A DNA stretch of 64,000 nt from NCBI GenBank assembly GCA_002269645.1, contig NIVC01000862.1, positions 124,001 through 188,000 of the forward strand. Reading direction: 5' to 3'. The notes below the pieces were generated by a model. That model saw only the letters and a list, made by a program, of their open reading frames with translations. It was not told where the DNA came from and ran no database searches. Source of the stretch: Macrostomum lignano. Lineage: Eukaryota. This document shows positions 43,626 through 64,000 of this stretch, piece by piece (the stretch's first letter is position 1; the number at the start of each line of letters is the position of its first letter). The position numbers were made by a program, and so were the translations under genes.

Positions 43626-43737
43626 AGTAGTATGGGATAACAGAACTCTGCCGCAGGAATTTCCGTGGAAAAGCCATGGGCCCTAGTGAGTGAACATACG
43701 GCCCTATGTAAATCCATTGAGCGACTCTGCCGCAGGG
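43626..43737 (+). repeat. Polinton left terminal inverted repeat
   Basis: AGTAGTATGGGATAACAGAACTCTGCCGCAGG...GCCGCAGGG is the exact reverse complement of 59281-59392 and 59487-59598. Imperfect similarity continues ~20 bp further in. Confidence 0.95.
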
Positions 43738-43866
43738 AAAGCCACGGAAATTCCATGGGGGGCACATCGGGTGGGCATGGGGGTCCGGTGAGATAACAAA
43801 GCGCATGCTGGTATATGTACTGAAGGAAACTCATTATTGCACCCACCCCACTCCGCCTAGAAAGTA

Positions 43867-43874: not shown

Positions 43875-43948
43875 ATGGGCGATTTTTTGAGGTTGGCTTC
43901 ATGACGAAAGGAATTTTTGTGCATCTTTCTTAAAGAAGCATCTCATTA

Positions 43949-44671
43949 ATGGATCTCTGTGACGGCTTCAAAGTTCAAGTGCAAGAGTACGAAGGTCATC
44001 GCTTTATTGCAATCCGACGTTTCTTCTCCTCTGAAAGCGGGCTCAGAGCGGGCATCCCTGGCTTTAACCTCAATGCGTACCAATGGGAGAAGTTGAAGCA
44101 GCTGAAACGCCAGCTTGTGCACTCGGCAGTCAATCGGCACAGCGTCACAGTCAAGCTTGGCTTTGATAAACTCGTTGTGGTCAGCAGGGGCATCATCTGG
44201 CTGAAGCGTCTGCCGGAAGACTGTACAGAGGATTATCTGCGGCGGAACTCAGTGGCGCTGACTCCCCGTCTATGGGGAGAACTCTGGAAGAAGGCCGAGT
44301 GGATCGACAACGAGCTGCGAGAGAAGTCGGCGGAGAGTGAGTATCAGCTGGAGGCCGAGGACATCAAGCATGAGGGCCAAGAAGCACAGCTGGTCAGCGA
44401 AGAAGAAGAGGAGAAGAGGCTGCGCATCGTCGAGTCGGACAATGCAACCAGCTCGCCTGTTCTGCCAGAGACTTCAGTCGGGCGCATACCCCAGCAAGAC
44501 AGCGACCTGTCGCACGACCCACTGTGGTACCGGTTCCGTGCTGCTTCAGGGCTCGGCAACAGCGGCTGTCACAAACGAAAGCTTCCGTGGCCCCTGCGCA
44601 GGCAAAATGCAATCAAGTTGCCCAAAGTGATCAATGGTGGAGAGGATGGTGACGCAGAAAAAAGTGCTTGA
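43949..44671 (+). CDS. PC4/Sub1-like ssDNA-binding protein (two PC4-like repeats + acidic tail)
   Basis: FKVQVQEYEGHRFIAIRRFF..GLRAGIPGFNLNAYQWEKLK fits the PC4 pattern V.V.EF.G...IDIR.Y....G.KGISL...QW..L. A weaker second unit is KLGFDKLVVV..IIWLKR..NSVALTPRLWGEL. Confidence 0.75.
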   Translation: MDLCDGFKVQVQEYEGHRFIAIRRFFSSESGLRAGIPGFNLNAYQWEKLKQLKRQLVHSAVNRHSVTVKLGFDKLVVVSRGIIWLKRLPEDCTEDYLRRNSVALTPRLWGELWKKAEWIDNELREKSAESEYQLEAEDIKHEGQEAQLVSEEEEEKRLRIVESDNATSSPVLPETSVGRIPQQDSDLSHDPLWYRFRAASGLGNSGCHKRKLPWPLRRQNAIKLPKVINGGEDGDAEKSA

Positions 44672-44898
44672 TAAACTTTTTAAGTGACTATGCGTGGACA
44701 TTGCTATGCCATCTGTACGAGTATTGATGTCTAACAGTTCTATTTATCCAGCTTTTTCAGCTTATTCATTAATGTCCTATTAAATGAGCTCGTTTAAAAT
44801 TAAAAATAAAATAAAATAAGCATCTCTCTCTATAATTATGCTAGTTTACTGGTAAACTTAAGAATGCGAAATGAGTTTAATTTTTTCTCTAATTGAAA

Positions 44899-45966
44899 AT
44901 GGAAAAGATTTACTTTAACCCTGAGCAGCCAGCAAGCTTTTCTGGCTGCAATAAATTTATTAATGAAGTTCGCACGCAGGGTATCCGAGTGAGTGAAAAA
45001 GCTGCGAAAAACTGGCTTAACGATCAGACAGTCTACACATTACATAAGCCAGCAAGGAGGAATTATCCGAGGGCCCCAATCATAGTTCGAAGTATTGATG
45101 ACCAATGGGAGTTGGATCTGGTGGAGATGATTCCTTTTTCCAAGTATAATAACGGCTACAGGTATATTCTAACATGCATTGATGTGCTGTCCAAGTACGG
45201 ATGGGCGAGGGCATTAAAGAACAAGTCTTCTATTGAAGTGAAGTCGGCATTCGAGAGCATATTAAGAAGTTCAAAGCGGCAACCGCGCACTGTTCGCACT
45301 GATCAAGGGAAAGAGTTTATCAACTCTACTTTTCGCCAATGCTGTATGGAAAGGGGAATCCTGGCATTCCCAACCAACAGTGAGCAGAAGGCGGCTGTCA
45401 TTGAACGATGGAACCGAACTTTAAAGAGCAAAATGTGGCGCTACTTCACCCACAACAGCACTCTGCATTGGCTTGATGTGCTGGCTAAGCTAGTGAAGTC
45501 CTACAACAAAACTTACCACAGAAGCATACGAATGGCACCAACGAATGTCAGCCAGGAGAACGAGTCCGAGGTCTGGATGAGCCTATATGACGGGAAAGCG
45601 ATTGAAACTGTGGAAAAGCTGGGAAAGCCAAAGTTCAGCGAAAACCAGTCTGTGCGGATTTCCAATGCACCCAGGCTTTTTAGAAAAGGGTACAAGGCCA
45701 ACTGGAGCGAAGAAGTGTACACGGTGGTGTCCAGAGCTCCAAAGCATTATCCCTACATGTACAAGATAAAAGACATGGAAGGAGAAGAGATTCGTGGGCT
45801 TTTTCACGAGCATGAACTGCAGGCCGTTCCGGAGTCGCAGCGGCTGTATGTGATTGAGAAGATTCTGAAGACTGAGAAGCGGAGGCGTAAGATCCGATAT
45901 CTGGTCAAGTGGGCCGGCTACGACTTCACTGACTGGGTGGATGAGAAGGACTTAAGAAAAGTGTAA
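44899..45966 (+). CDS. Retroviral-like (rve) integrase with C-terminal chromodomain
   Basis: IYFNPEQPASFSG N-terminus; catalytic WELDLVEM, RTDQGKEF and VIERWNRTLK; chromodomain YVIEKILK..YLVKWAGY..DW. Frame intact. Confidence 0.95.
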   Translation: MEKIYFNPEQPASFSGCNKFINEVRTQGIRVSEKAAKNWLNDQTVYTLHKPARRNYPRAPIIVRSIDDQWELDLVEMIPFSKYNNGYRYILTCIDVLSKYGWARALKNKSSIEVKSAFESILRSSKRQPRTVRTDQGKEFINSTFRQCCMERGILAFPTNSEQKAAVIERWNRTLKSKMWRYFTHNSTLHWLDVLAKLVKSYNKTYHRSIRMAPTNVSQENESEVWMSLYDGKAIETVEKLGKPKFSENQSVRISNAPRLFRKGYKANWSEEVYTVVSRAPKHYPYMYKIKDMEGEEIRGLFHEHELQAVPESQRLYVIEKILKTEKRRRKIRYLVKWAGYDFTDWVDEKDLRKV

Positions 45967-45978
45967 GATGCCGACATT

Positions 45979-46806
45979 GTGCAGCCATTCCCAATTATGA
46001 GAAGCATCATCATTAACAGCGAAAATGCTGAAGGTACTCCTACTGACTTTCATTTTCACCTGCCTTCACCTATTTACTTGGATCGAAATGTGGACTATGA
46101 GGCAGGTCTGGCTGAAATCCATCTGCCTGCTGCATGGTTCAATGTTGACGAGCCTTACTGCTTCACTGTCTCAGATGGAAGAGAGCATGAGGCCTTGGTT
46201 CTTCAACCCGGACGCTTTGCTAGAGTGGAGGAGTTGGTGGAGCGCATGAATGAACTGCTGGCCAACTCTGAGTCACTGTTCTTCGATGCAATGAGCGAGA
46301 GGGAGTCTGAAATGGAGGCTGATGAGTCTGGTTTAATGGGGCGGAGCAGCGCTAGAGATATTGGCATAAAGTTTGAGATCCAAGAATTGAGAACGGTAGT
46401 GCTCAACAACACGGCTCGAGCAGAATTATTCCTTCCATCAAGTAAAATTCTGCAGTGGCTGGGATTCGGAAATCAGTCCGTGAAAATTCCACCTGGGCGC
46501 CAAGTTTCCATGTACCACATTGGCTGCCCGCCCACCAATCTGATCAACGTGCATTGTAGCATTGTGGAGTCAACTAATTGCAACTGGAATTCCCTGCTGC
46601 GAACTGTGAACATGAATCCTGAAGCCGGATGGGGAAGCTACTGGAGCAAAGTGTTTAAGAAAACAGTTTTCTTCCCCATTCAGAAAACAAATTTTCTACA
46701 CAGCATTCGAGTTCAACTGCGAGACATCTTTGGCTTCTCACTGACTGCTCATAGCGGCAGCCCTGTTCTGCTCACAATTCTGATACGTGAGAGACCAATG
46801 CAATGA
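45979..46806 (+). CDS. Minor capsid protein (penton-like single jelly-roll)
   Basis: DFHFHLPSPIYL..YEAGLAEIHLPAAWFNV and C-terminal INVHCSIVE..LLRTV..IRVQLRDIFG resemble Polinton minor capsid proteins. Position in the gene cluster fits. First ATG is at 45997. Confidence 0.75.
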   Translation: MQPFPIMRSIIINSENAEGTPTDFHFHLPSPIYLDRNVDYEAGLAEIHLPAAWFNVDEPYCFTVSDGREHEALVLQPGRFARVEELVERMNELLANSESLFFDAMSERESEMEADESGLMGRSSARDIGIKFEIQELRTVVLNNTARAELFLPSSKILQWLGFGNQSVKIPPGRQVSMYHIGCPPTNLINVHCSIVESTNCNWNSLLRTVNMNPEAGWGSYWSKVFKKTVFFPIQKTNFLHSIRVQLRDIFGFSLTAHSGSPVLLTILIRERPMQ

Positions 46807-47219
46807 ACTATCAGCAGCTGATTCGGCAGTATTCAGGGACTCGGACGGGAAATGAAAAGTCCATGCTCTATGGCTGCGGGAGTTTTCCTGGAATAATGAC
46901 TTACCAGCCTCCTCCAGCACCTTCCATAACATCATCATCATCATTAGCATCAAAGCCTGTACAAACCAGCAGTAGCAGCAGAAGCAATAGTACGAGTAAT
47001 AGAAACATAGGAAATCAAGCACAGGCTAAAAAGGTGAATAAGAAGCAGGTGCGCATGAAGAAGAAGAAAAAAAGTGGCGAAGCACGCAAAACAAGCAAGG
47101 TCAGAACAAGCAAGCAACCTAAGAAAAGAACGACTAAAACACAGACCAAGAAAACAGGCAAAAGAAACCAAAAAGTGGGCAAAGAAACTGTGAAGCGTGT
47201 TCTGGACTCACTCTCATAG
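46803..47219 (+). CDS. Small basic, Lys-rich putative core (DNA-condensing) protein
   Basis: Lies immediately upstream of MCP. K/R-rich C-terminal half. LYGCG fits the adenain cleavage consensus (M/L/I)xGx/G. ATGA overlap with the upstream stop. Confidence 0.55.
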   Translation: MNYQQLIRQYSGTRTGNEKSMLYGCGSFPGIMTYQPPPAPSITSSSSLASKPVQTSSSSRSNSTSNRNIGNQAQAKKVNKKQVRMKKKKKSGEARKTSKVRTSKQPKKRTTKTQTKKTGKRNQKVGKETVKRVLDSLS

Positions 47220-47221
47220 CA

Positions 47222-48504
47222 ATGGCTTACGGATTCAACCCGAGACTCGATTTGTTCAAGTCCCCCGTGCTGCAGACTGCTATTGAAAAATCCACGTATG
47301 TTGATATTCACCCCGTGAACTCTATTACTACTAACTCACCTATTGAATTCGACTGCCATCCATCGGCTGATGAGTACACTGATCTGCTGAGCTCATTCCT
47401 GTATATTCGCTGTCGCCTAGTCCGGCTTGGCGGGGCTTTGATGAGGGAGGAGGTTCGGAATGCCGATGGAGTTGTCACTGAGCGCAGAGACAGTGGGGTG
47501 CACCCAGAAAACTTTGTCCTGTCTACGGCATTCTCAGATGTAATCGTGAGCATCAACCAGCGCATTGTCTCAGGTGGAGACCAGCTCTACCCCTACCATG
47601 CCTACCTAAAAGCTCTCATGAGCTCATCCGATGCTCAGCAGTTAAATTTCTACCCCGCCGGATTCCTGGAACCCGAAACTGCTGCTGAGGGGCATGCCGA
47701 GAGACACAGGGAGTCCCGCTGGGTGGAGTATGCGGGACCGCTGCTCAGCGACATCTTCCAGTGTCCTGTTCTGCTGCTGAACAATTTACACCTGCACATC
47801 AAGCTGATGCCCAGTGATGCTGCATTCGCCATTCGAACCCCAGATGAGAACAACACAGCCTACCGAATGGAAATCTCCCACTGCATTCTGAACCTGCGCC
47901 GAGTCAAAGTGGCGCCTCACATCAGCCTAGCGCATGAGCAGGGACTTACCAATCAGAACGCACTTTACCCCATCGAGCGAACCGAAATGCAAAACTTCAT
48001 TCTACCCCAGGGAATTCAGTCAAAAAACATTGAAGGATTCACCCATGGCAAACTGCCGAAGTTCGTTATGCTGGTCTTCGTGAACCACCGAGCCTTCAAT
48101 GGCCATCACCATTCCAGCCCCTTCGAGTTCCAGAGCTTCAACCTCAGCCAGCTAGCACTAAAGAAAGGTGGTGAAGCCATGTGCCACGCTGCATTTGCAC
48201 CTGAGAATAATTCATTCGTGAGAGAGTACTTGCACTACCTGAAAAGCTGTCAGTCTGCCAGCCCTACCAACTCGGTTCCGTGGGTCCCCTACCAGTTGTT
48301 CTCCAACGGCAACACAGCTTTCGCATTCGATCTCACGCCTGAGGGAGCGGCCCTGTGGTACGGACAGAAGGAGGGAATTTGCGGCTGGAGATTCGCTTCC
48401 GACAGGCCCTGGAGGAGCCTGTATCTCTGATTGTTATGTGCCTGTATGACTCACTGATTGAGGTCACGAAGCACAGGGAGATTCTGCTAGATTTTCCATC
48501 CTAG
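47222..48504 (+). CDS. Major capsid protein (double jelly-roll); one frameshift near 48372
   Basis: LDLFKSPVLQTAIEKSTYVDIHP..PIEF..DEYTDL and FEFQSFNLSQL are Maverick MCP motifs. The shifted frame gives the expected C-terminus GNLRLEIRF..LIVMCLYDSLIEV..REILLDF*. Confidence 0.9.
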
Positions 48505-48527
48505 GAGTACGCTGGCGCAACGCTAAT

Positions 48528-49040
48528 ATGGATGCTTTTCAACTGCTTAAACTGGCTAAAAGCTTTTTGCCACAAAATAACTATTTAATTATTGTCTTGA
48601 ATTCAATAAATAAAACATCTTATGCTTTAAACTTTATTCAGCGAGCAACTCTCAAAAGAAATTTATCTCGATGTAAGTTTATTTTCTTTCTGCTTCAGTA
48701 CGGCTCGTCCTTTGGTCACTGGGTGGTTTGTTATGCCAATAAGGAGAATTCCATAGAACTCTTTAACTCTCTGGGCTGGGACTCAAGCACTTTAGAGATC
48801 ATTCACAGAGCACTGAAATCCTTTTGGTATTCTCCATTCTACTTACGTAGCAATGTGAATCGAATTCAGAGCTGCAACTCTGCTAAATGCGGTTTGTTCT
48901 GTCTCTTGTTTGCCTATCAAAAGTTTCGTTTCAAGCGCTCGTTTGAGTGGGTTCTGCGGCACCTCCATGCAAATCAGCAGAGCCACTTGAATGAAAGAAT
49001 TCTGCAAAGGTTTGAGAGTTGCTTAAGAAAAAAAATTTAA
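48528..49040 (+). CDS. Adenain-like cysteine protease
   Basis: GHWVVCY (His), IELFNSLG, and RIQSCNSAKCGLFC (Gln, Cys). Confidence 0.85.
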   Translation: MDAFQLLKLAKSFLPQNNYLIIVLNSINKTSYALNFIQRATLKRNLSRCKFIFFLLQYGSSFGHWVVCYANKENSIELFNSLGWDSSTLEIIHRALKSFWYSPFYLRSNVNRIQSCNSAKCGLFCLLFAYQKFRFKRSFEWVLRHLHANQQSHLNERILQRFESCLRKKI

Positions 49041-49077
49041 TTAGACTTTTAAAATCAAGGATTTAGCTCAACAGGCG

Positions 49078-49729
49078 ATGGAAACACGTGAGCGGATAAA
49101 CTGTTATGATGTGCGCCTGCGACAGGAAGCTGCATGATTGTCAGCGGGCCTACAAATGCAGGAAAGACAACCTTCGTGAAACATCTGATACAATACAAGG
49201 ATGTCATGTTTGATGTGAAGCCTGGGAGAGTTCTGTGGTACTACGGAATTTCACAAGCAGCACACTCTGAGCTCAGCAGTCTCGGCGTGCACTGCAGCAG
49301 GGATTTCCCAGCAGTATCGAGACCGCACTGAGACCCAATGACCTGGTTGTATTTGATGACCTGATTGAAGAAACTTCCAATTCTGCTGCAATGCGAAATG
49401 TTTTCACTGGAATTGCCCATCATTTGCCCTGCTTTCTGGTTATGCTGACCCAAAATGTATTTTTTAAAGGGAAGGAGTTGCGAACAATGAGTCTGAATGC
49501 GATGTACTTTGTGATCATGAAGAACCCCAGAGACCAGCTGCAGATTGCGGCGCTGGGCAGGCAGTGTTTTGCTGAGAAGCCCGGCTTTCTGCTGTCAGTG
49601 TTCAAGCACGTGACATCGCACGGCAGGGGAGCCTACCTGCTCCTGGATTTTCACCCTTCCACCCCTGATGAGCTGCGGGTCCGGGCTCGAATCCTGCCCA
49701 ATCAGCGACCCCACCTGGTTTACACTTAA
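49078..49729 (+). CDS. A32/FtsK-like packaging ATPase; two apparent 1-nt deletions (~49125, ~49290)
   Basis: Walker A GPTNAGKT; Walker B LVVFDDL in the next frame; HH..LVMLTQNVF..RTMSLNAMYFVIMKNPRD..YLLLDFHP. Confidence 0.9.
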
Positions 49730-49776
49730 GAATAACAGCCGAGATTTTGCCATTTGCTCTATATTCTGCAACACTA

Positions 49777-50094
49777 ATGATAATGGAAACATTCGACTCA
49801 CATGAAAGTTTGTTTGATGTTCTCGCCTCACCGAAATATTCCATCAGCTTTAAACGTCTGTTGATCAGAGCGGGTCCAAAAGCAGTACATGAATTTCTCA
49901 TTGAGGCCTGCTATAACCTATTGCAAAACACTCTGTCGTTCTCACTCACTGAAAAGGCAGCGCTAGTGAAGCAAAAGCAAATAATCCGCAAAATTTCTAC
50001 ACATAGAAGAGCTGCGGATCTGCTAAATACGGGTTTTATCAAAATTCTCTACATTCTAATAAAGCTAGTGAAGAAAAAGAAACAAAATGAATAA
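49777..50094 (+). CDS. Conserved small Polinton protein (PW-like), function unknown
   Basis: LLIRAGPKAVHEFLIEACYNLL..EKAALVKQKQIIRKIS resembles the recurrent Maverick pattern I..CICECALN.L.G...L...K..LR.LA. Confidence 0.55.
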   Translation: MIMETFDSHESLFDVLASPKYSISFKRLLIRAGPKAVHEFLIEACYNLLQNTLSFSLTEKAALVKQKQIIRKISTHRRAADLLNTGFIKILYILIKLVKKKKQNE

Positions 50095-50779
50095 GTTCTC
50101 AGAAATGGTTCTGATCCCCAAGTCAGAATACGACATGCTCACACAGAATTTGAAGCCAGTTGAGTCTGAACTCGACACTGCTGTGAGATATGCGCAGAGG
50201 AAATGCAATGATATTTTGCTTGCCGAGGATTGCCCAGACGATGTGAAAGCTGCCATGTACCATGATGCGATGAAGAGTTTGCTGGCCAAGCGCAAGCGGA
50301 CTGGAAAGGATGATGCGGTACCTGCGAGTGATGCAAAGATGCTGAAAACTGATATTGCACCAAGCAGCTGGGGGGAAAAGATCACCCAATCCGTGCCGCA
50401 GAAGTTTAAAGCGAGAGCCCGCAGTCTATGGGCCATCCTATCTGGCAATCCTTCTCTGATTCGGGTGTCCGAAAATGGCGAGGCGCAAATTTGTGGGAAG
50501 ACAATACCCTCCTCAAACATCCTGGATTTGTTTCACAGTGCCGTGAGGGATTCGAAATGTGCCAGCGAGCCGGTGGGCTGGAGTGAGTTTGTCTCATTGC
50601 TCCAAGATAAAAAGCTTAACATCCCAGCTTCGGCCATAGGAAAGTCAGTTAGGCAGCTAATTTCTAAACCTGCTGTTTCTCCAGAGGCCGCCCCTGCTCA
50701 TCATACAGTTAAAGGATTCGGGAGTGGGAGAGCTTGGCTACAGCTGAACAGGAAAAAACTATTTAAGAAGGGGAACTGA
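50087..50779 (+). CDS. Uncharacterised Polinton protein (230 aa)
   Basis: Intact ORF overlapping the upstream stop. MVLIP, SNILDL, P.GW..F..LL...NIP..AIG resemble a family recurrent in Mavericks. Confidence 0.6.
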   Translation: MNKFSEMVLIPKSEYDMLTQNLKPVESELDTAVRYAQRKCNDILLAEDCPDDVKAAMYHDAMKSLLAKRKRTGKDDAVPASDAKMLKTDIAPSSWGEKITQSVPQKFKARARSLWAILSGNPSLIRVSENGEAQICGKTIPSSNILDLFHSAVRDSKCASEPVGWSEFVSLLQDKKLNIPASAIGKSVRQLISKPAVSPEAAPAHHTVKGFGSGRAWLQLNRKKLFKKGN

Positions 50780-50819
50780 GTCGGCTTCCCGATATCAGGC
50801 ATCTTGAAACCATCCGATC

Positions 50820-51314
50820 ATGAACTATATTGACTTCCAAGGCTTCCCACGCGAGAGATCGAGCAGAGATTTCGTTGTGAAGGAGCTAGCCATTGCCCAA
50901 GTCCGGGCAGGCAGTTACCATATCACTCATCACGTGTACGCCTCTCCGTTCTCATGGGAGCGAATCTCACCTGAGATGCAGGTGCATTACAGAAAGCTCT
51001 CAAAGAATTTGCATCATTTCAAGTGGACAGATGGATCCCGATCGTACATGCATTTGGCAAATGACATTCTAAACATTGCTTACGGCCCCACCTGGACAAG
51101 CGGGGTGAAAAAGTCCATCTTTCTGACTGAGCTGCTTGGCAGACAGGTGTACAACCTAGAGGATCTGGGATCACCTTTGATTCAAGCATCTGATACTGGT
51201 TGTGCAGTGAAAAATGTATTGCTCTACTACAACTGGCTGAAGCCAAAGTTCTGTATCAACTTAAGAAGCGAGTGTGCCCGCACACTCAAAGGCTCTCAAA
51301 GACAGCACCACTGA
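50820..51314 (+). CDS. DnaQ/DEDD-exonuclease-like small protein
   Basis: YIDFQGF..FVVKELAI..HHFKWTDG..Y..NLEDLG..CAVKNV pattern. The fold assignment is inference. Confidence 0.5.
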   Translation: MNYIDFQGFPRERSSRDFVVKELAIAQVRAGSYHITHHVYASPFSWERISPEMQVHYRKLSKNLHHFKWTDGSRSYMHLANDILNIAYGPTWTSGVKKSIFLTELLGRQVYNLEDLGSPLIQASDTGCAVKNVLLYYNWLKPKFCINLRSECARTLKGSQRQHH

Positions 51315-51331
51315 CAGAAAGGACTCTCTAA

Positions 51332-51895
51332 ATGAGTACACCTGCGACAGCCCTGCGAGTGACCAATCTGGTTGGCGGCGTGGATCTGAGGCTGGCTGGA
51401 GGCAGGGGTGCCCAGTTGCCTCTGCGGGAACTGGCTCTCAGCATGGCTCATGTCATCTATCGCCCGTCTGGCCCCGAGTGCTCATCAAGAGGATGCGGAA
51501 TCCCAGAGTGACTCTATTGCTCTATCCGACTGGACAACTGAGTATCTGTGGCGCCCGGAGCTACTCGGCCTCAGTCAGGCTGCCCGTCGCTTCGTGGCTA
51601 TGCTGCATCGCAGAGTTCCGCCTCAACTGCTGCCTCGTCAATCCGTTTGTGTCGAATTAAGACTATTACTGCTTATGGAAAAATAGACTTGCCCAAGGCT
51701 CTATCACTAAGAAACCTCTGTGAAGTGCTACCGAATGCGAAATATGAACCTGAAAGTTTTACTGCTTTAGTTTGTCAGCTTCAATACTGCAAGTGTACGC
51801 TTTTTCACAATGGCTCATTTGTGCTCAGCGGAGCAAAGTCTAAGCATATGCTACAATCAGACCGTTCCCTATTAGCTTGCTTGCTTTCAAACTGA
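51332..51895 (+). CDS. TATA-binding protein (TBP)-like gene, ~188 aa after correcting three 1-nt deletions
   Basis: Repeat 1: LRVTNLVGGVDL..LPLRELALSMAHVIYRPSGP/RVLIKRMRNPRVTLLLYPTGQLSICGARS/LSQAARRFVAML. Repeat 2: IKTITAYGKIDLPKALSLRNLCEVLPNAKYEPESFTALVCQLQYCKCTLFHNGSFVLSGAKS. Both align to the TBP core (QNIV..V.L..LDL..IA....AEYNP..F..VIMR..P..T.LIF.SGK.V.TGAKS..AARK.AR; YEPELF.GL..). Confidence 0.8.
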
Positions 51896-52453
51896 AATAA
51901 ATAAAAAGAAAGAATAAATCGCGGCTTGTTTAATTAAAATATTCAAATTAATTCTCTCTCATGCACTAGCTTTTTGTCTTCATTTTTAATTGCAATGAAA
52001 AACCAGTGGTGAACATCTTGTAGAGATAAACAAATAGCAAGCTAAAAGCAAATACGAGCAAGCAGATAAACCACTACAAAAATAGGAAAAAATAGTCCAA
52101 AAGCAGATGGAATATATTAAAACTTATAAAGCAATATCAGGATTCAAAAAACCAACCACAAAGTACAGGTAAAATTAGAAAAAAATAAAACTCTCACATG
52201 CCATCACCGCAAACACACCACCACCACTAACGAAGCATTGGTTTCATTATCATCATCGCGCAATTGTAAGTAAATATTGTGAAGCAAAAAATTGTTGCTA
52301 GCCTCAGCAGATGATCAAAGTTTTTATTGCATTTGGGAAAAATCCTATTTAGATTAGCGGTTAACCTTTATTCAATGTCAAAGAAAGAAACTTTGAAATC
52401 GCAAAGAAATTATTGTTTTTGTTTAGCAAGCTTGTTGTACTCATTATTCAATT

Positions 52454-52571
52454 TCAAAGTAGTCGGCGCCGTTTTGATGATTTCTGCTGCTGTTGCTGTT
52501 GTTGCTGTTGTTGTTGTTGTTGTTGCTGCTGTTGCTGTTGTTGCTGTTGTTGTTGTTGTTGTTGTTGTTGT

Positions 52572-52613
<42 letters not shown>

Positions 52614-55600
52614 AGCAGCCGAATGTGACCAAATGGGAGACTATAGTTAGGGCTCAGCCAAGCGCGCTTGTCTTCCCAAATGCTTAAGGCACACTTCCGC
52701 TGCTGCAAAGTGTACAGTCGGTGATGGATGCTGGCAATACGATGAACAACGACAGAATGGCTGCAGAGCTCATTGAACACCCTTAGGTAGTCACTGTGAG
52801 CCAGCTCTTTCTTAACAATGCATCCTTGAACTCCTTTGGCCTTCTTCTTTTCCGCGGCTTGGCTACTCGCCTTGAATGAGTAAAGCTTCGGCCTTAGGAG
52901 CAGCCACTCCTCAAAGCGAGCACCGGCTGCTTCATCCTTAATGCAGCCAAGTCGCGCTTTTAAATCATTCGAGAATAGCGCGTGCTCTTGAGGATAGTTT
53001 GAAGTGTCGAGCAGCTGCTTCGACTTCAACAGCGGTAGAACTTTAGACTGAACGCTCATGTTGCTGATTGAGAGAAAGAAAGAATCGGTATCACCACCGC
53101 ATAGCTTGATGACACCTCCATCGTTCTCTATCCAGGGCTTCAGTTTGTCGTAAAACAGCTCGTACATAATCATTTTCGAAAAGTCTAGGACGCATTGCCC
53201 GATAAAAATAGGCCGATCGAGCTTTAATTTTGTCTTTTGCAGTTCCAAAACGCTTAGTGAATCAGTAATTATGATAAAATTGGTAATTGTCGGCTTGGCA
53301 AGCAGTACCTTTACCTTTTCCACGTTGGTGCAGACTCGAATATCACGCCGCTTTCGCACATTCTCCATAGTTTTGCCGAATAGCGCGTTATTCTTTAACT
53401 TGTAGAAATCCTTTTCGAAGTTGGTTTTCGCTGCAGCCCGCTTCTGGCTATTTTTCTCGACGTAGGCAGCAAAGAGAGGCTCTTGGTGAAACTCAATCAT
53501 GCGATTGATGCGTCTAACCCGCATTCCATGGTTCAGGTAGAACGCCAAAATAGAGGAATGAACCACATAGGAAGGCTTATCGTGACAAGTGAGCATCAGC
53601 TTCTCTGTCGGATGATAGGTGGAGTTCTCCGTACCGACCTTTTCCCACAGCTGCTGCATGTATTCAGGAAATTCCCTGAAATTCGGGGCAGCCTTTTCCG
53701 GTGCAAATGGCAGGTCTTCGGTGGTTTCGTGAATCTCTGGGGGATACTCAAGGTCAACATCAAAGAGGTAGGCGAGTGGATCGGTTAGCTTGAGTCCTCG
53801 AATGCGATCTTCAGTCCACAAAAGCAGCTCATCATCGTCCAGCCAACGGAATCCTCCGACTGGTAAGTTCATAGTGAGCGCCTGTCCATACAGGTTGTTT
53901 GCATCCACAGCAAGAAGCTCGGTGAGGCCAGCATGAATAGTAGGAGTGCCACCATCAACATCCTCATTGCTGTCAACACCAGTGCTGGCGCCCGCTGCTG
54001 AGGTAGCCTGCACTTTGTGGATGTTAACAAACGACATGCCGCCGCGAATGCCGCGCTCAAACAGCGAATACATCTGCGCATCTGTTAGCAGTTCAATCCC
54101 TGACTTGATGGATTTCAATGCCGAAGCGAATGATAGGCCTGGTGTCGAAATAAAATGGACTGGATCAAGGCCATCCTCTTGCATGCTGATCTTGCGAAAA
54201 TTTTCAAAAATATCAGCCAACTGCCTGATGTCGAGCTCGAGGTAGCACAGCATGTACTCTTTTAGATTTGAAACCTGAAATTCTCGCCAGGCGCGTTGAG
54301 CATGCTCATAGTCAGAGTTGGTGCAGTGGCTCTTAGTCAGAGCATTGTAGAAGCTCTCTTGGCTGGGAAGCACGGCATCCTTCAGCACGTCTGAATTTTT
54401 AAGATAGTCATACGGGAAAACTCCCTTGCTGAAAAGCACTTCGGATGATAGCAGTGGGAATCTGCTGCGTAGGCGACTAGTGATACGACATTCAGCCTCT
54501 GGTAAATTTTTGATGAGCTGTGAGAGGCTGGCATTAAGAAATTGATTCGAATCAATGAACTGAATAGTAAAATTTAGGCTTGATCTTGCCCTCACTCTCA
54601 TACTCGCCGATTTTAAATTCGATTTTCATCGACAGAAACTGCTCTGGATTCAGAGGGATGACGGAGATTTTCCAACCCTCCATCAGACCCAAAGCGGATG
54701 ACATCATGAGATGGAGATCGTACCCCTTGAAATTGTGGAACACGACGGGAAGGAAAGACCTCTTTAGTCTGGCCTTCATATTACAATCAGCACACGCAGC
54801 TCCCCGAAATTCTCCGCTGAGGTGGTCGTGATCCCAATGTTTATTGGACCCTTCCGTGAATTCGCTTCCACAATAGCAGCAAGCTGTGGCTTCTCTGAAC
54901 TGTCGCCCTGCCATCTCTGTTCTTATCGCTGCTTGTCGACTGAACTCCGTGTTCCAGCCGTAAACTTCACGAGCGAGCTTCTCCAGCGATTGCAGGAAAT
55001 CGGAAATGCACTTATTAGGATCGTCGCTGACAAAAGTGCTCACTTTATCATCCGCTCCTCTGGGCGCTAGACCAGTCATCCCTTCTCTGTGCAGCACGAT
55101 GTAGCCAGCAGCAACAGCAATGTGCTCAGTTAACTTCTTCGTTGCTATACCAGCAATCGAATCTTCTTGGCATGGAGCATTCAATGCTTCGAAGTCGGCG
55201 TAAACAACAAATGGCGGACTAATTGTTTTTTCCCATGATGAGAATCGGAGAATATTATTCCTTTCATCCGGCAACTCTTCCTTTACGTTGATCACTCCAG
55301 GTTGACAAGGAGCTCGCTGTGTTCTTCAAAGGCTGCATCACTATGAAAGGGCAGCAAGCAGCGCTCACACCACTTCCGCCGATGCAGAGCTGCCTTGCTA
55401 TTAAGAAGCCTGTTGATGCTTGAAACAGCACACCAATGACCCGAGGCCTCGTCTTCTGATGGTGGAATAAATAAGAGTAGAACAACTTCTCGATCTTTAA
55501 TTGTAGCTGCAGTAGGCAAGCGGAGGACTTGAGCGCTCTCTTTCTCCCAGATGAAAACCGTGAAGCAAAGTCTCGGGTTCAGTCTCTCAACAATGGAAAG

Positions 55601-56763
55601 GTCAGTGACATTGATTGGCAAGTCAATTCCACTCATGTTAAGTTCATCCAGCCAGTCAGTGTAGGAAGACTCGCGTTGCGCTGATTTCTTTATTTTGTTG
55701 TCTTCCTTGTGCAGAAAAGCAAGGCATGCGTAAAGAAAGCAATTTACACCATTGCTTGGAGGACAAATAACCGCCTTCTTCCGAAGAAGTGGAGTCGGTA
55801 GAATAAATTCCGCAGCATGCCCGTGTAGTAGGAAACTCGTTCGACGAGAGCTGAGTAAAGTTCAAAAAAATTAATTTTTTCAATTATCCAGCCACTACCG
55901 TTGGTGTTGTAGACATCGACTTTGCGCTCCAGCTCTGTAAACTGCTGTCTCCACCAATCATCAAACTCCTGTATATCTACCATCAATCCGAGTTGTGTGC
56001 TCATCCATTTATCCTCCCCCTTGACAGCTTCTGACGCCTGCACTCTGACCATGTGCAAATTCAGTTTGATCTGAGCTTTAACAGAGCAATTATCCGAAGA
56101 GTCGAAGCGAATTTCAAGACACTGCTGCACTGCGATTTTGCAGAAATCGAGAAACTCGAATGTTTCAGTGGCAGCTCCAGGTGTAAATCGATGAACTTGA
56201 AGAACATCTTCGTGAGCGCTGGTTTTTAACGCCAGGGTGAATGAAGGTCCTACAATTGAAGAAGGGAAGATAGTATTAAAATATTTATGGAAAGTGGAAA
56301 TGATGAGAAATGTCTCTGGGAGTTATGGAAGTCGAATATTTTATTGCCCTTTTTACACTTACGAGTATACTATTTATCCTACTACCTTATATCTAGATTT
56401 AATATTTTTTTATTAATCAATACGAGCTACGTATAAGTGTAAAAAAAGAATTTGAAGAGTTATTATTGAAGAAATAGATGGAGTTCTGCTTTCGCATTTT
56501 TGTCAATTCATCTAATGAGGAATAAAAATGTCTCATTATTGTGAGTTCTCCGGCTTAATCCTGTTGGGAACCATTTGGGAGTTGTTGTGTAGGCGAGAAA
56601 AATAAAATATATAATTCCGTTGCTAAGAGACAGGAATGCAACAAACAGAAATGCATGAGTTCATAAAACCAGCAATGGAATGAAAAAACTCACCACTCGG
56701 TCCAAATTCGTGGCTGACAGCTGGGTCCACCGGCTCGTCCTCTTGACTCGATGAGGTGGCCAT
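52454..56763 (-). CDS. Protein-primed DNA polymerase B (pPolB), ~1290 aa, probably spliced; three small deletions in this copy
   Basis: Motifs: VVYADFEA (ExoI), EndoVII-like CCYC..DHDHLSGEFRGAAC..CN, VVFHNFKGYDLH, KGVFPYDY, AVDANNLYGQAL, KLKNNALFGKT, GGDTDSFF, KKKAKGV. Exon 1 is 56694-56763 and exon 2 runs 56249 to 52454. The deletions at ~54577 (2 nt), ~55317 and ~55827 are absent from the duplicate copy. Confidence 0.93.
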
Positions 56764-57466
56764 TGCAGAGGATTAATATTAGAAATAGAGCGACATTCAG
56801 TGAAGAACTCAATGCTGCTGAAATTCCAGTGTAAAAGTGTTGTTTGATAAATTTAACCCAAGAGCAATTCTGTCAGAGATGTAGTGGAGTGATAAATTTC
56901 CAGCATTCAGAGCTCTATGGAGCAGAAATTGAATCTAACCAAAGTCATGCTTGACTAACCAAATTCATGTCATTCTAAACATTGGGTATCATAGATAATC
57001 AATCCCATATTATACTCATAGAGTTGAGTAGATGCTGTGAACCTAACGGTAATTCTATAAGCCAGTGAACTTATAACTTCTTCGAAGATATTCATGTTTG
57101 AAAAAAAACAAGTAATGAATTCAACAAAGTCCAAGAAAGTGCAAAAGCTTTCATTAAAAGCAACCATCAATCCATTATATTTCTGGTAAAGCATTTCCCA
57201 ATGCAAAAAATCATGCTCGTTAGTCACCCTACTAATTAAAGCTGCTTATTAAAGCTTTATTATAAGAATAAGTTTGAATAGTAAGCCTAAATGATTTTCT
57301 TTTTCACTTTGCTTAGGATATTAATGAGAAACCTGTATGAGCACGATGAGGTGCAACGTAATTACGCTCGTAGTTAATATTTATGCAGGGTAGAATGCAT
57401 TGGTTTTCGGCTAAAAATATACAAATCTCGTTTCCCCTACTTTTAAATACTTTGAACTGGGACACT

Positions 57467-58453
57467 TTAAGAGCTACTTAAGCGAATGCGAGTTCCTCCC
57501 CCAAGGTCAATAAAATACTCGCCCTCGACTCTGCTCGGTAGTACCAGCTGAATGCAGAGTGACGGTGGCATCGGTGGCATGGCTGCTACGACTGGGATGT
57601 CACCGGTTTGGATTTCTGGTGCAGCCGGTGGAGTAGGAGGTTCGAATTCTCGCAGGAGATCGGTTAGGCTTGCTTCTGCCATCATTCTGGCTTGCTCCAT
57701 TTTTTTTCCTGCGACTGGAACAGGCCTGTAGGGTGGCATCTGTTGCTGCTCAGCTTCTTCATTTGCCATCTCAACAGGCTCCAACTCGATATCCTGGAAG
57801 AAGGCAGTATCCAACTCCGAAGGAGCTGCAAAACCAGTGGAATCGTCAGCCGGGTGGCCGGCATCAGCAGTTGGAAGCCCGGCACCGTCAGCGGGGAGGC
57901 CGGCATCAGCAGTTGGAAGGCCGGCACCGTCAGCGGGGAGGCCGGCATCAGTAGTTGGAAGGCCGGCACCGTCAGCTGGGAGGCCGGCATCAGTAGTTGG
58001 AAGGCCGGCACCGGTTGAACCAAAAAAATCTGATTGCTGCTCCACAGCGGCAAGTGCAGCAGCAAGCAGATCAAAGTTTGCGTCGGTAGCGTGCTGAAAA
58101 TCTTCATCAGGCTGCTGAAAGACGCCCTGAATTGTCTGGCTGAGTGCGCTGACCGGTGCTCGACTGCGCTCGATAATGTTGAGCTGCTCTTGACGCTGGG
58201 CAGCCTCCAAGGCAGCAAAGCGGGCTCGTTTTAAATCTCCAGGTGAGCTCCAGTTAATAATAATGTGGTTTTTGTGAGCTCGAACTTGCTGGCGCACATT
58301 AAAGAGCTCACGCGTCTGGCACTCGTGGCAAAGCAGCCAGCGACTGACATTGCAGCTGCTTTTCATTTTGTGACGTTTTAAGCCACCGAGCTCACATGAG
58401 TTGCAGGAAATGCATACCTCGTACACATATGAAGGGCAGCGCGATTTATTCAT
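57467..58453 (-). CDS. Uncharacterised 328-aa protein: Cys/His-rich N-terminus, four 14-aa repeats, acidic/Pro-rich C-terminal half
   Basis: Intact ATG-to-stop ORF, identical in the duplicate copy, with a TATA box upstream. Confidence 0.65.
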   Translation of the reverse strand: MNKSRCPSYVYEVCISCNSCELGGLKRHKMKSSCNVSRWLLCHECQTRELFNVRQQVRAHKNHIIINWSSPGDLKRARFAALEAAQRQEQLNIIERSRAPVSALSQTIQGVFQQPDEDFQHATDANFDLLAAALAAVEQQSDFFGSTGAGLPTTDAGLPADGAGLPTTDAGLPADGAGLPTADAGLPADGAGLPTADAGHPADDSTGFAAPSELDTAFFQDIELEPVEMANEEAEQQQMPPYRPVPVAGKKMEQARMMAEASLTDLLREFEPPTPPAAPEIQTGDIPVVAAMPPMPPSLCIQLVLPSRVEGEYFIDLGGGTRIRLSSS

Positions 58454-58547
58454 TCCAAATTTTTAAATGTTTGAATAGAAAAATCAAATTGAAGTTAAAT
58501 TCAAATTAGAAGTAGAAACTTATGTCCCGTATTCAAGTATACGGTGT

Positions 58548-58555
58548 CTTATATA
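58548..58555 (-). promoter_or_regulatory. TATA box (TATATAAG) upstream of the 328-aa gene
   Basis: Same 8-mer as at 43867, ~95 bp upstream of ATG 58453. Confidence 0.55.
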
Positions 58556-58593
58556 CCTCGCTTATTCGAATCTGCGTTAATAAAAACATAGCC

Positions 58594-58640
58594 GCTATGT
58601 TTACAGCTTAGCTATGTTTACAGCTTAGCTATGTTTACAG
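58594..58640. repeat. 17-bp triplet GCTATGTTTACAGCTTA containing TGTTTAC
   Basis: Read directly: two full copies and one partial. Confidence 0.85.
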
Positions 58641-58893
58641 TCAGTAACCCAGCCGTCTCAGAAACCGGGTTTTTTAAAATAATTTTATTAGAAAACCCAG
58701 GTACAGAGCCTCTATTGAAAGCATACATGTACAAAAGTTCCTTTGCACTTGCCGCCAACTGGAACTCCCGACCAGACTGGGGAGCAATAAAACTGATAAC
58801 TATTGAGCGTCCAATTCCATTTAGCAACACACCCACCACCCCAAGAAAGGGGGAGATGCTTGGCTATTATAATCTTATTAAAGCAGCATCTTG

Positions 58894-58936
58894 TTATTGA
58901 AACTTTTGCCTAATTAATAGGCAAAAGTTTCAATAA
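58894..58936. other. Perfect 19-bp inverted repeat with 5-nt loop (hairpin/cruciform)
   Basis: TTATTGAAACTTTTGCCTA-ATTAA-TAGGCAAAAGTTTCAATAA. Confidence 0.85.
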
Positions 58937-59280
58937 ATTCCAAAATTCCAAAATCCTTAAATTCCAAAATCAAGTGATTTTTTCAACAGTTGGTAGCTCA
59001 AATTTTAGACATGAATTGCAAATTGATTTTATTGTAATCATTGAAATAAAGACACGCCCCTCCTCCTTTTACGATACCCGATTGAATATTAAATGTCATT
59101 CAGAAGCAAAGCATTGCCTGGTTTTATGAACCGAACCGCCTGTGTCCGTCGTAGCAGAACACACATTTGCCAATACTCATTCATTGCGGTTAACGGAATT
59201 CCCGCGGAGCCCCACCCCATTCGCAAATACTTTCACCAATGTACTCTCACTAGGAGGTCTCACGGAATTTCCATGGCCTG

Positions 59281-59392
59281 CCCTGCGGCAGAGTCGCTCA
59301 ATGGATTTACATAGGGCCGTATGTTCACTCACTAGGGCCCATGGCTTTTCCACGGAAATTCCTGCGGCAGAGTTCTGTTATCCCATACTACT
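59281..59392 (-). repeat. Polinton right terminal inverted repeat
   Basis: Reverse complement of 43626-43737; ends ...CCCATACTACT. Confidence 0.95.
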
Positions 59393-59404
59393 ACTGTTAT
59401 CCCA

Positions 59405-59598
59405 TTCCCGCGGAGCCCCACCCCATTCGCAAATACTTTCACCAATGTACTCTCACTAGGAGGTCTCACGGAATTTCCATGGCCTGCCCTGCGGCAGAGT
59501 CGCTCAATGGATTTACATAGGGCCGTATGTTCACTCACTAGGGCCCATGGCTTTTCCACGGAAATTCCTGCGGCAGAGTTCTGTTATCCCATACTACT
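59405..59598 (-). repeat. Tandem duplicate of the right end (59199-59392) including a second full TIR (59487-59598)
   Basis: Direct repeat at a 206-bp offset with 12-nt filler ACTGTTATCCCA. Confidence 0.9.
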
Positions 59599-59599
59599 T

Positions 59600-61918
59600 C
59601 TACAGTGGGAATCTGCTGCGTAGGCGACTAGTGATACGACATTCAGCCTCTGGTAAATTTTTGATGAGCTGTGAGAGGCTGGCATTAAGAAATTGATTCG
59701 AATCAATGAACTGAATAGTAAAATTTAGGGGCTTGATCTTGCCCTCACTCTCATACTCGCCGATTTTAAATTCGATTTTCATCGACAGAAACTGCTCTGG
59801 ATTCAGAGGGATGACGGAGATTTTCCAACCCTCCATCAGACCCAAAGCGGATGACATCATGAGATGGAGATCGTACCCCTTGAAATTGTGGAACACGACG
59901 GGAAGGAAAGACCTCTTTAGTCTGGCCTTCATATTACAATCAGCACACGCAGCTCCCCGAAATTCTCCACTGAGGTGGTCGTGATCCCAATGTTTATTGG
60001 ACCCTTCCGTGAATTCGCTTCCACAATAGCAGCAAGCTGTGGCTTCTCTGAACTGTCGCCCTGCTATCTCAGTTCTTATCGCTGCTTGTCGACTGAACTC
60101 CGTGTTCCAGCCGTAAACTTCACGAGCGAGCTTCTCCAGCGATTGCAGGAAATCGGAAATGCACTTATTAGGATCGTCGCTGACAAAAGTGCTCACTTTA
60201 TCATCCGCTCCTCTGGGCGCTAGACCAGTCATCCCTTCTCTGTGCAGCACGATGTAGCCAGCAGCAACAGCAATGTGCTCAGTTAACTTCTTCGTTGCTA
60301 TACCAGCAATCGAATCTTCTTGGCATGGAGCATTCAATGCTTCGAAGTCGGCGTAAACAACAAATGGCGGACTAATTGTTTTTTCCCATGATGAGAATCG
60401 GAGAATATTATTCCTTTCATCCGGCAACTCTTCCTTTACGTTGATCACTCCAGGTTGACAAGGAGCTCGCCTGTGTTCTTCAAAGGCTGCATCACTATGA
60501 AAGGGCAGCAAGCAGCGCTCACACCACTTCCGCCGATGCAGAGCTGCCTTGCTATTAAGAAGCCTGTTGATGCTTGAAACAGCACACCAATGACCCGAGG
60601 CCTCGTCTTCTGATGGTGGAATAAATAAGAGTAGAACAACTTCTCGATCTTTAATTGTAGCTGCAGTAGGCAAGCGGAGGACTTGAGCGCTCTCTTTCTC
60701 CCAGATGAAAACCGTGAAGCAAAGTCTCGGGTTCAGTCTCTCAACAATGGAAAGGTCAGTGACATTGATTGGCAAGTCAATTCCACTCATGTTAAGTTCA
60801 TCCAGCCAGTCAGTGTAGGAAGACTCGCGTTGCGCTGATTTCTTTATTTTGTTGTCTTCCTTGTGCAGAAAAGCAAGGCATGCGTAAAGAAAGCAATTTA
60901 CACCATTGCTTGGAGGACAAATAACCGCCTTCTTCCGAAGAAGTGGAGTCGGTAGAATAAATTCCGCAGCATGCCCGGTGTAGTAGGAAACTCGTTCGAC
61001 GAGAGCTGAGTAAAGTTCAAAAAAATTAATTTTTTCAATTATCCAGCCACTACCGTTGGTGTTGTAGACATCGACTTTGCGCTCCAGCTCTGTAAACTGC
61101 TGTCTCCACCAATCATCAAACTCCTGTATATCTACCATCAATCCGAGTTGTGTGCTCATCCATTTATCCTCCCCCTTGACAGCTTCTGACGCCTGCACTC
61201 TGACCATGTGCAAATTCAGTTTGATCTGAGCTTTAACAGAGCAATTATCCGAAGAGTCGAAGCGAATTTCAAGACACTGCTGCACTGCGATTTTGCAGAA
61301 ATCGAGAAACTCGAATGTTTCAGTGGCAGCTCCAGGTGTAAATCGATGAACTTGAAGAACATCTTCGTGAGCGCTGGTTTTTAACGCCAGGGTGAATGAA
61401 GGTCCTACAATTGAAGAAGGGAAGATAGTATTAAAATATTTATGGAAAGTGGAAATGATGAGAAATGTCTCTGGGAGTTATGGAAGTCGAATATTTTATT
61501 GCCCTTTTTACACTTACGAGTATACTATTTATCCTACTACCTTATATCTAGATTTAATATTTTTTTATTAATCAATGCGAGCTACGTATAAGTGTAAAAA
61601 AAGAATTTGAAGAGTTATTATTGAAGAAATAGATGGAGTTCTGCTTTCGCATTTGTGTCAATTCATCTAATGAGGAATAAAAATGTCTCATTATTGTGAG
61701 TTCTCCGGCTTAATCCTGTTGGGAACCATTTGGGAGTTGTTGTGTAGGCGAGAAAAATAAAATATATAATTCCGTTGCTAAGAGACAGGAATGCAACAAA
61801 CAGAAATGCATGAGTTCATAAAACCAGCAATGGAATGAAAAAACTCACCACTCGGTCCAAATTCGTGGCTGACAGCTGGGTCCACCGGCTCGTCCTCTTG
61901 ACTCGATGAGGTGGCCAT
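59600..61918 (-). CDS. 5' half of pPolB (~624 aa), frame intact, truncated by a TAG at the duplication junction
   Basis: Exon 1 is 61849-61918, intron 61405-61848, exon 2 61404-59600. The 561-aa ORF in the track lies within exon 2. Confidence 0.8.
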
Positions 61919-64000
61919 TGCAGAGGATTAATATTAGAAATAGAGCGACATTCAGTGAAGAACTCAATGCTGCTGAAATTCCAGTGTAAAAGTGTTGTTT
62001 GATAAATTTAACCCAAGAGCAATTCTGTCAGAGATGTAGTGGAGTGATAAATTTCCAGCATTCAGAGCTCTATGGAGCAGAAATTGAATCTAACCAAAGT
62101 CATGCTTGACTAACCAAATTCATGTCATTCTAAACATTGGGTATCATAGATAATCAATCCCATATTATACTCATAGAGTTGAGTAGATGCTGTGAACCTA
62201 ACGGTAATTCTATAAGCCAGTGAACTTATAACTTCTTCGAAGATATTCATGTTTGAAAAAAAACAAGTAATGAATTCAACAAAGTCCAAGAAAGTGCAAA
62301 AGCTTTCATTAAAAGCAACCATCAATCCATTATATTTCTGGTAAAGCATTTCCCAATGCAAAAAATCATGCTCGTTAGTCACCCTACTAATTAAAGCTGC
62401 TTATTAAAGCTTTATTATAAGAATAAGTTTGAATAGTAAGCCTAAATGATTTTCTTTTTCACTTTGCTTAGGATATTAATGAGAAACCTGTATGAGCACG
62501 ATGAGGTGCAACGTAATTACGCTCGTAGTTAATATTTATGCAGGGTAGAATGCATTGGTTTTCGGCTAAAAATATACAAATCTCGTTTCCCCTACTTTTA
62601 AATACTTTGAACTGGGACACTTTAAGAGCTACTTAAGCGAATGCGAGTTCCTCCCCCAAGGTCAATAAAATACTCGCCCTCGACTCTGCTCGGTAGTACC
62701 AGCTGAATGCAGAGTGACGGTGGCATCGGTGGCATGGCTGCTACGACTGGGATGTCACCGGTTTGGATTTCTGGTGCAGCCGGTGGAGTAGGAGGTTCGA
62801 ATTCTCGCAGGAGATCGGTTAGGCTTGCTTCTGCCATCATTCTGGCTTGCTCCATTTTTTTTCCTGCGACTGGAACAGGCCTGTAGGGTGGCATCTGTTG
62901 CTGCTCAGCTTCTTCATTTGCCATCTCAACAGGCTCCAACTCGATATCCTGGAAGAAGGCAGTATCCAACTCCGAAGGAGCTGCAAAACCAGTGGAATCG
63001 TCAGCCGGGTGGCCGGCATCAGCAGTTGGAAGCCCGGCACCGTCAGCGGGGAGGCCGGCATCAGCAGTTGGAAGGCCGGCACCGTCAGCGGGGAGGCCGG
63101 CATCAGTAGTTGGAAGGCCGGCACCGTCAGCTGGGAGGCCGGCATCAGTAGTTGGAAGGCCGGCACCGGTTGAACCAAAAAAATCTGATTGCTGCTCCAC
63201 AGCGGCAAGTGCAGCAGCAAGCAGATCAAAGTTTGCGTCGGTAGCGTGCTGAAAATCTTCATCAGGCTGCTGAAAGACGCCCTGAATTGTCTGGCTGAGT
63301 GCGCTGACCGGTGCTCGACTGCGCTCGATAATGTTGAGCTGCTCTTGACGCTGGGCAGCCTCCAAGGCAGCAAAGCGGGCTCGTTTTAAATCTCCAGGTG
63401 AGCTCCAGTTAATAATAATGTGGTTTTTGTGAGCTCGAACTTGCTGGCGCACATTAAAGAGCTCACGCGTCTGGCACTCGTGGCAAAGCAGCCAGCGACT
63501 GACATTGCAGCTGCTTTTCATTTTGTGACGTTTTAAGCCACCGAGCTCACATGAGTTGCAGGAAATGCATACCTCGTACACATATGAAGGGCAGCGCGAT
63601 TTATTCATTCCAAATTTTTAAATGTTTGAATAGAAAAATCAAATTGAAGTTAAATTCAAATTAGAAGTAGAAACTTATGTCCCGTATTCAAGTATACGGT
63701 GTCTTATATACCTCGCTTATTCGAATCTGCGTTAATAAAAACATAGCCGCTATGTTTACAGCTTAGCTATGTTTACAGCTTAGCTATGTTTACAGTCAGT
63801 AACCCAGCCGTCTCAGAAACCGGGTTTTTTAAAATAATTTTATTAGAAAACCCAGGTACAGAGCCTCTATTGAAAGCATACATGTACAAAAGTTCCTTTG
63901 CACTTGCCGCCAACTGGAACTCCCGACCAGACTGGGGAGCAATAAAACTGATAACTATTGAGCGTCCAATTCCATTTAGCAACACACCCACCACCCCAAG
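59603..64000. mobile_element. Partial second Polinton copy (right arm), duplicating 54452-~58845; continues past window end
   Basis: Offset 5151-5155 bp. Identical ORFs (85 aa, 328 aa) and only a handful of substitutions seen by eye. Confidence 0.93.
62622..63608 (-). CDS. Second copy of the 328-aa Cys/His-rich repeat protein
   Basis: Translation identical to 57467-58453. Confidence 0.65.
   Translation of the reverse strand: MNKSRCPSYVYEVCISCNSCELGGLKRHKMKSSCNVSRWLLCHECQTRELFNVRQQVRAHKNHIIINWSSPGDLKRARFAALEAAQRQEQLNIIERSRAPVSALSQTIQGVFQQPDEDFQHATDANFDLLAAALAAVEQQSDFFGSTGAGLPTTDAGLPADGAGLPTTDAGLPADGAGLPTADAGLPADGAGLPTADAGHPADDSTGFAAPSELDTAFFQDIELEPVEMANEEAEQQQMPPYRPVPVAGKKMEQARMMAEASLTDLLREFEPPTPPAAPEIQTGDIPVVAAMPPMPPSLCIQLVLPSRVEGEYFIDLGGGTRIRLSSS

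Follow-up and report, generated by a model that had tools for sequence, protein, structure and literature searches.

The locus analysed here raises the question of how the polymerase gene of a flatworm Polinton obtains its start codon. The window, a stretch of 64,000 nt of the Macrostomum lignano genome (contig NIVC01000862.1, positions 124,001 to 188,000 of the forward strand), contains the polymerase frame twice, and in both copies no in-frame Met is found upstream of a strong acceptor site. The original prediction had placed a spliceosomal intron ahead of this frame, with a short upstream exon supplying the ATG. On re-reading, the 70-nt exon, the GTGAGT donor, the 444-nt intron, the acceptor and the matching phases were all correct, the same exon-1 peptide was obtained, and the frame of the first copy indeed has no ATG ahead of the acceptor, its first in-frame Met being codon 66 of exon 2 (position 56052). 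Judging the splice from DNA comparisons, we conclude that a core Polinton gene very probably contains a genuine spliceosomal intron of old date here. We put at roughly 85% the probability that RNA polymerase II transcribes the gene and that the host spliceosome removes the intron constitutively, which would yield a leader-TP-vOTU-PolB polyprotein and make production of the full-length polymerase dependent on host splicing.

The element at 43626-59392 is a Polinton, and the nearest named proteins carry the label Macrostomum lignano. It is bounded by 132-nt TIRs, falls in the 15-20 kb length range of these elements and resembles Polintons/Mavericks (eupolintoviruses, adintoviruses) as characterised in the consulted parts of 10.1101/2024.03.18.585575 and PMC8097293, with AGTAGT TIRs, a 6-bp target duplication, an rve integrase, an adenain protease, a probable capsid and ATPase, and a pPolB with predicted TP and vOTU domains (Table 1). 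The 6-bp target-site duplication is perfect around a sister copy on contig C2389 (L083/L073) and matches at 5/6 positions at the window locus, where the right end is rearranged. The polymerase gene matches PF03175 (E 2e-11) and PF02945 (Endonuclease_7); its frame is broken near 55820, 55315 and 54575 in the first window copy, and open polymerase frames of about 1,300 codons are present in several other genomic copies. In copy L083 each non-polymerase gene reads, local frame breaks aside, as one ORF that starts with ATG, among them the TBP-like gene (188 aa) and the packaging ATPase candidate (a 217-aa P-loop ORF). A further frame, ORF-X, precedes the leader in those families that were inspected; its sole Pfam match is the low-complexity DUF1502, and an AATAAA follows it near 57260.

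Table 1. Coordinates of the window Polinton, its predicted polymerase exons and the duplicated right part
Feature	Position	Strand	Basis or remark
Left TIR	43626..43757	+	AGTAGT start
PC4-like gene	43934-44671		window Polinton
rve integrase with chromodomain	44893..45966	+	PF00665 (E 8e-13), PF00385
Probable DJR capsid	47138..48430	+	clusters containing PF21738 (share 15-65%) matched on Atlas features at 0.97; recognition score under the tool's threshold, no Pfam match
Adenain-type cysteine protease	48462..49040	+	PF00770
Probable packaging ATPase	49079..49729	+	weak P-loop and Pox_A32 matches only; frame broken
TBP-like gene (TATA-binding protein fold)	51265-51895	+	PF00352
Predicted exon 2: TP, vOTU-like motif, Endonuclease_7 (HNH-type) insert, protein-primed PolB	52454..56249	-	ORFs, Pfam, Foldseek
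Start of exon 2: predicted TP/D1 domain	55843..56249	-	model, invariant columns, topology comparison
Predicted GT-AG spliceosomal intron	56250..56693	-	444 nt, 32% GC
Predicted exon 1, coding part	56694..56763	-	70 nt, 60% GC, 3n+1 = phase 1
ORF-X (Cys-rich N-terminus, acidic repeats)	57467..58462	-	ORF listing
Right TIR	59261..59392	-	second copy at 59467-59598
Tandem duplicate of 54452-58845	59603..64000	-	99.8% identity; truncated exon 2
Copy 2 intron	61405-61848	-	inside tandem duplicate
Copy 2 exon 1	61849-61918	-	inside tandem duplicate

Read on the minus strand, exon 1 would start with the ATG at 56763 (context GCAATGG), continue for 23 further codons and 1 nt, and encode an acidic, Ser-rich leader. 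The predicted intron begins with GTGAGT (56693) and ends with TTCTTCAATTGTAG (56250), after which exon 2 opens with GA CCT at 56249 in phase 1; stops are present in all three frames of the intron. The features of a major (U2-type) intron are thus in place, namely a GTRAGT-like donor, a YAG acceptor and phase-compatible exons. As to the branch point, a CTAAT-like word precedes the acceptor in the related family C, and none is obvious in the window intron. The same structure does occur in the second copy, as had been pointed out, but that copy lies within a tandem duplication of 99.8% identity and so adds no independent support. Its polymerase is truncated at 59600. The duplication of the element's right part, which includes a doubled TIR (59198-59601), is either recent or an assembly artefact.

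Independent evidence was sought in other copies in the genome, the conservation of splice sites in related elements having been named beforehand as a check. Genome searches returned at least 39 matches by DNA and at least 128 with the 135-aa start of exon 2 as a query. From these we picked 70 loci spanning the identity range, of which 67 match the TP region. A phase-1 YAG acceptor was found 17-29 nt ahead of a conserved motif (S/T/Q/R-A-H/Y) in 62/67 of these; the remaining five have a damaged acceptor (L013), are interrupted by a contig end (L015) or have their 5' part replaced (L060, L061 and L068). The 62 acceptor-bearing loci form nine families whose TP domains share 30-67% protein identity with one another (with family B represented by L019 in the identity matrix, L064 having a frame break). 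The family donor, GTRAGT or AG/GTATG, is present at 58/62 loci, and 49/58 of these have an open phase-1 leader that begins with ATG. Family D also has a cryptic donor, which is closer than the in-phase donor.

The introns themselves range from 179 to 1143 nt, their lengths cover all three remainders modulo 3, and they align between families no better than shuffles do, except between G1 and G2 and between I and K. Within family A, to which the window copies belong, the donor is GTAAGT in 11/11 copies outside the window and exon 1 is 70 nt long and in frame in 11/12 other loci (69 nt in L013); indels number 41 per 5,328 aligned intron nt against 6 per 5,040 exon nt, although homopolymers and differences common to several copies inflate these numbers. 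Minisatellites vary the intron length in family C (369-1143 nt) and family B (522-773 nt) and leave the splice sites intact (L019-L034). Three further loci (L016-L018, on C538, C2146 and C4033) carry degenerate relatives of the first exon and 5' intron of family A, at 77-78% identity and with a stop at codon 4, followed, where the polymerase would stand, by an unrelated frame of about 140 codons that has no Pfam match.

A phase-matched YAG arises by chance in 10-21% of shuffles per family, and the product over families, 5e-8, exaggerates their independence, since the families have common ancestry and the acceptor patterns were fixed only once the loci had been inspected. An arrangement of this kind at a single locus could be chance; its recurrence across nine divergent families is not plausibly so.

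The leader exons encode 16-396 aa, mostly acidic and Ser-rich, and their repeats grow in frame, reaching 120-138 aa in most copies of family L and 107-396 aa in families I and K. Not all of them carry a start codon: the single family F locus (L038) has a donor and a long open acidic phase-1 exon with no ATG, and the same kind of ATG-less exon is found at 7/8 family G loci (L039-L041, L043, L046, L047 and L057). The two-exon model is therefore incomplete for these two families, and F and most G loci would need either another upstream exon or a non-AUG start. They bring in an alternative for the locus as a whole, according to which the leader is an internal exon of a longer transcript that begins in ORF-X or in an upstream exon and is alternatively spliced, as a unit with shared leaders like that of adenoviruses. 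Besides the ATG-less exons, this alternative draws on a phase-0 acceptor candidate before the acidic exon of family F together with a GTGAGT in phase 0 within the open frame of ORF-X, on candidates in families I and K for an upstream acceptor and for an ATG-bearing phase-0 donor, and on gene models in UniRef (P0001, P0123 and P0142) that join the same acceptor to ORF-X. In the window family, though, a second strong donor with an exon that carries an ATG was not found within 2 kb, the ATG of exon 1 has a good context, and the AATAAA lies between ORF-X and the leader. We consider a longer transcript unlikely as a general account; for families F and G only, it fits alongside the two-exon reading that we prefer.

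Public gene models speak to that two-exon reading as well. Macrostomum lignano models in UniRef carry the exact family-C junction in 10/10, 3/4 and 2/2 members of three clusters, under unrelated automatic names and with no recognition of the gene as Polinton. Such models reflect agreement between predictors and are no proof of splicing, and the three that use ORF-X instead show that gene predictors disagree on the donor. To look at the junction in public sequence, we aligned eight contig sets (X1, X2, X6, X9, X10, X11, X12 and X14; 5 study codes), taken from 24 runs of which none is recorded as RNA, to 52700-59100. The spliced joint was found in 0/8 sets, whose data type is unrecorded and may be DNA and whose contigs show presence, not absence. 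Among the pieces listed, unspliced contigs, which are possibly DNA, bridge the donor in at least 7/8 sets and the acceptor in at least 5/8. As the sets may contain DNA, and the alignment covered the Polinton stretch and no spliced host gene as a control, they weigh neither for nor against splicing. Comparative DNA and a predicted fold give strong backing to a spliceosomal intron that provides the start codon, and the dependence of pPolB expression on host splicing is predicted from it.

The unspliced contigs would also suit an intron that works as a regulated switch, retained in most cells and removed in the germline, in stem cells or after induction. The third intron of the P element, which is subject to regulated retention and splicing, offers a parallel, and a retained intron would place stop codons before the polymerase. 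Against a switch, donor and acceptor are near consensus (the GTAAGT of the other family-A copies included), and a comparison of the family introns found no intronic element conserved between families. We regard a switch as quite improbable, and for the earlier suggestion that splicing could be regulated nothing was found in support.

Whether the gene could do without an intron altogether depends on what the residues after the acceptor do. We modelled exon 2 of the second copy in its natural frame (near-identical to the first copy) with AlphaFold from a 67-sequence alignment (mean pLDDT 79.5), after discarding a single-sequence fold (pLDDT 32). The model has strands at residues 3-9 and 16-23, a helix at 29-49, strands at 54-70 and 73-83, a second helix at 92-115, Ser118, and a last strand at 120-136. 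Ser118 (motif NGSGW, near 55894-55896) is invariant and is a candidate linking residue. This topology agrees with the description of the TP/D1 domain given in the available text of 10.1101/2024.03.18.585575, where the linking residue comes after helix 2 and before the last strand; the agreement is with that description rather than from superposition on a TP. As predicted, the model matches the hallmarks of a PRD1/adenovirus-type D1 domain (a sheet of four or five strands, two helices and, between helix 2 and the last strand, a Ser or Tyr near a Gly), and Foldseek groups it with adintovirus (E 4e-23) and adenovirus PolB models.

The intron would accordingly sit at the edge, at the first strand, of the predicted TP domain. 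Translation from the first Met of exon 2, which falls in strand 54-70, would delete half the domain, losing two strands and a helix. This weighs against an account that dispenses with a functional intron, takes the AT-rich block for promoter or intergenic DNA and has translation start at an intronic, internal or non-AUG codon. An in-frame Met just before the acceptor, in the 3' end of the intron, does exist in 21/62 loci (12/13 in family B, 7/7 in C and 2/13 in A), from which unspliced RNA could be translated, and the Logan-derived relative P0003 was called from an internal Met. Such a Met is absent from the other 41/62 loci, both window copies included, and the account leaves the conserved phase-1 pair of donor and acceptor and the in-frame leader repeats unexplained; we hold it to be very unlikely.

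Turning to more distant polymerases, we found at least 20 residues before the equivalent position in 61/66 aligned database relatives (by a gene-calling method that is not stated). An IMG/VR scan gave two distant loci (21-24% identity) whose frames are continuous upstream of the TP region, and a metagenome scan with P0004 as a query returned no relatives. In the flatworm elements the extension ahead of the TP takes the form of an acidic, Ser-rich leader with repeats, whereas distant relatives carry zinc-finger or Rho_N-like extensions. Taken together, these comparisons suggest that the intron was gained in one lineage, at the boundary of the TP with an N-terminal extension that varies.

Introns of other kinds have been described in related elements, as far as the sections of PMC12220804 and PMC12166617 at hand go: protist PLVs have group I introns, and dinoflagellate Polintons have introners. 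The PLV introns resemble ours in lying within a gene of a Polinton-like element and differ in being self-splicing (RF00028) and placed in a small gene (PMC12220804, in the portion consulted). The introners are likewise spliceosomal introns within eupolintoviral elements; they are mobile, mostly young and acquired after integration, according to the accessible text of PMC12166617, whereas the flatworm intron holds a fixed site in an essential gene of deeply diverged families. That the flatworm intron is itself a group I or mobile intron can practically be dismissed, given its GT-AG ends, the lack of any Rfam match at E <= 0.1 in 43000-64000 (RF00028 included), AT-rich sequence that is unalignable across families, and a position that families with 30-67% protein identity have in common, which speaks against an insertion of recent date.

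For Polintons themselves, core genes are generally reported to be intronless. Intact vertebrate Mavericks have no introns, a result described as consistent with Kapitonov and Jurka 2006 (PMC8097293, available sections); nematode Mavericks have intronless core genes and introns only in cargo (10.1101/2022.07.12.499685, in the part consulted); and the passages seen of PMC10120064 state that endogenous viruses of this type 'do not contain introns'. The same passages indicate that this large survey used prokaryotic gene callers, genes being assumed to be intronless. The conserved predicted intron in the flatworm pPolB departs from these accounts; intronless core genes are a descriptive rather than a defining trait of Polintons, one that the predicted gene does not share. 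In the articles searched (Repbase and supplements aside), we came across no earlier description of a Polinton pPolB with a spliceosomal intron. The intron would contradict the common description of Polintons, and its mechanism would be an ordinary one.

The comparison with adenoviral E2B that accompanied the original prediction is sound as an analogy. Adenovirus pTP is spliced from two exons (PMC11304566, in the text available), and the predicted flatworm splice would similarly join an upstream exon to the body of a terminal-protein gene. The arrangement differs in that adenovirus pTP and pol are on separate mRNAs with shared 5' exons, whereas TP, vOTU and polymerase share one frame in the flatworm. 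Common ancestry of the two splices is unsupported, since distant Polinton polymerases have an N-terminal extension with no apparent break, and convergence is probably the better explanation of the likeness.

On our preferred account, a host-type GT-AG phase-1 intron was probably gained once, in the ancestor of a flatworm Polinton group (a tree-free estimate), and would now divide an ATG-bearing acidic leader from the TP-vOTU-polymerase body. If the vOTU cleaves behind the TP, as hypothesised in the consulted part of 10.1101/2024.03.18.585575, the leader would stay attached to the terminal protein, at the ends of the DNA. The probable reason for the intron's persistence is that in most families it provides the sole ATG before the domain. 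Supply of the start codon, escape from the silencing of intronless RNA, as with HUSH (described in the sections seen of PMC8770142) and regulation are candidate reasons for which it may be kept.

It may also offer a frame-safe site of recombination. We compared two loci of family I (L044 and L045) with three of family K (L048-L050), and also L084 and L085. Between the two families DNA identity is 90-96% through ORF-X, the leader and 90 nt at the start of the intron, at which point the similarity ends abruptly, and their polymerase segments have 44-65% protein identity. The simplest reading is that a crossover within the intron set a different polymerase behind the same leader, with phase 1 kept. 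The breakpoint suggests exon shuffling as a route by which polymerases could be exchanged between Polinton families. A wider and tentative extension, which we think doubtful as a whole, would make the intron a hinge: whole TP-vOTU-polymerase bodies would be swapped behind a common promoter and leader by recombination in the intron, as in families I and K, the leader would be a variable host-facing tag on the genome-linked TP, and the ATG-less families would be spliced from the upstream gene as an adenovirus-style unit.

If the intron is real, at least one lineage of animal Polintons needs both transcription in the nucleus and the host spliceosome, and ORF-based annotation will truncate such polymerases or assign them false N-termini. 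The junction would then serve as a simple assay that tells Polinton expression from DNA contamination in a laboratory flatworm, which bears on when Polintons are active.

Several other observations were made along the way. The C-terminal end of the polymerase is a long CAG-type poly-Gln run (52454-52650). In contig sets X2 and X9, contigs link 55570 to the reverse complement near 52190 (52160-52189), which suggests an inverted rearranged copy. Another Polinton-like gene set with capsid-like ORFs adjoins two family-A copies (in the flanks of L077 and of L078, the latter with no right end), possibly as nested Polintons. Elsewhere in the window, at positions 1-5800 and 35358-39537, long open frames accompany extended tandem arrays (21-nt spacing; 42/84-nt period).
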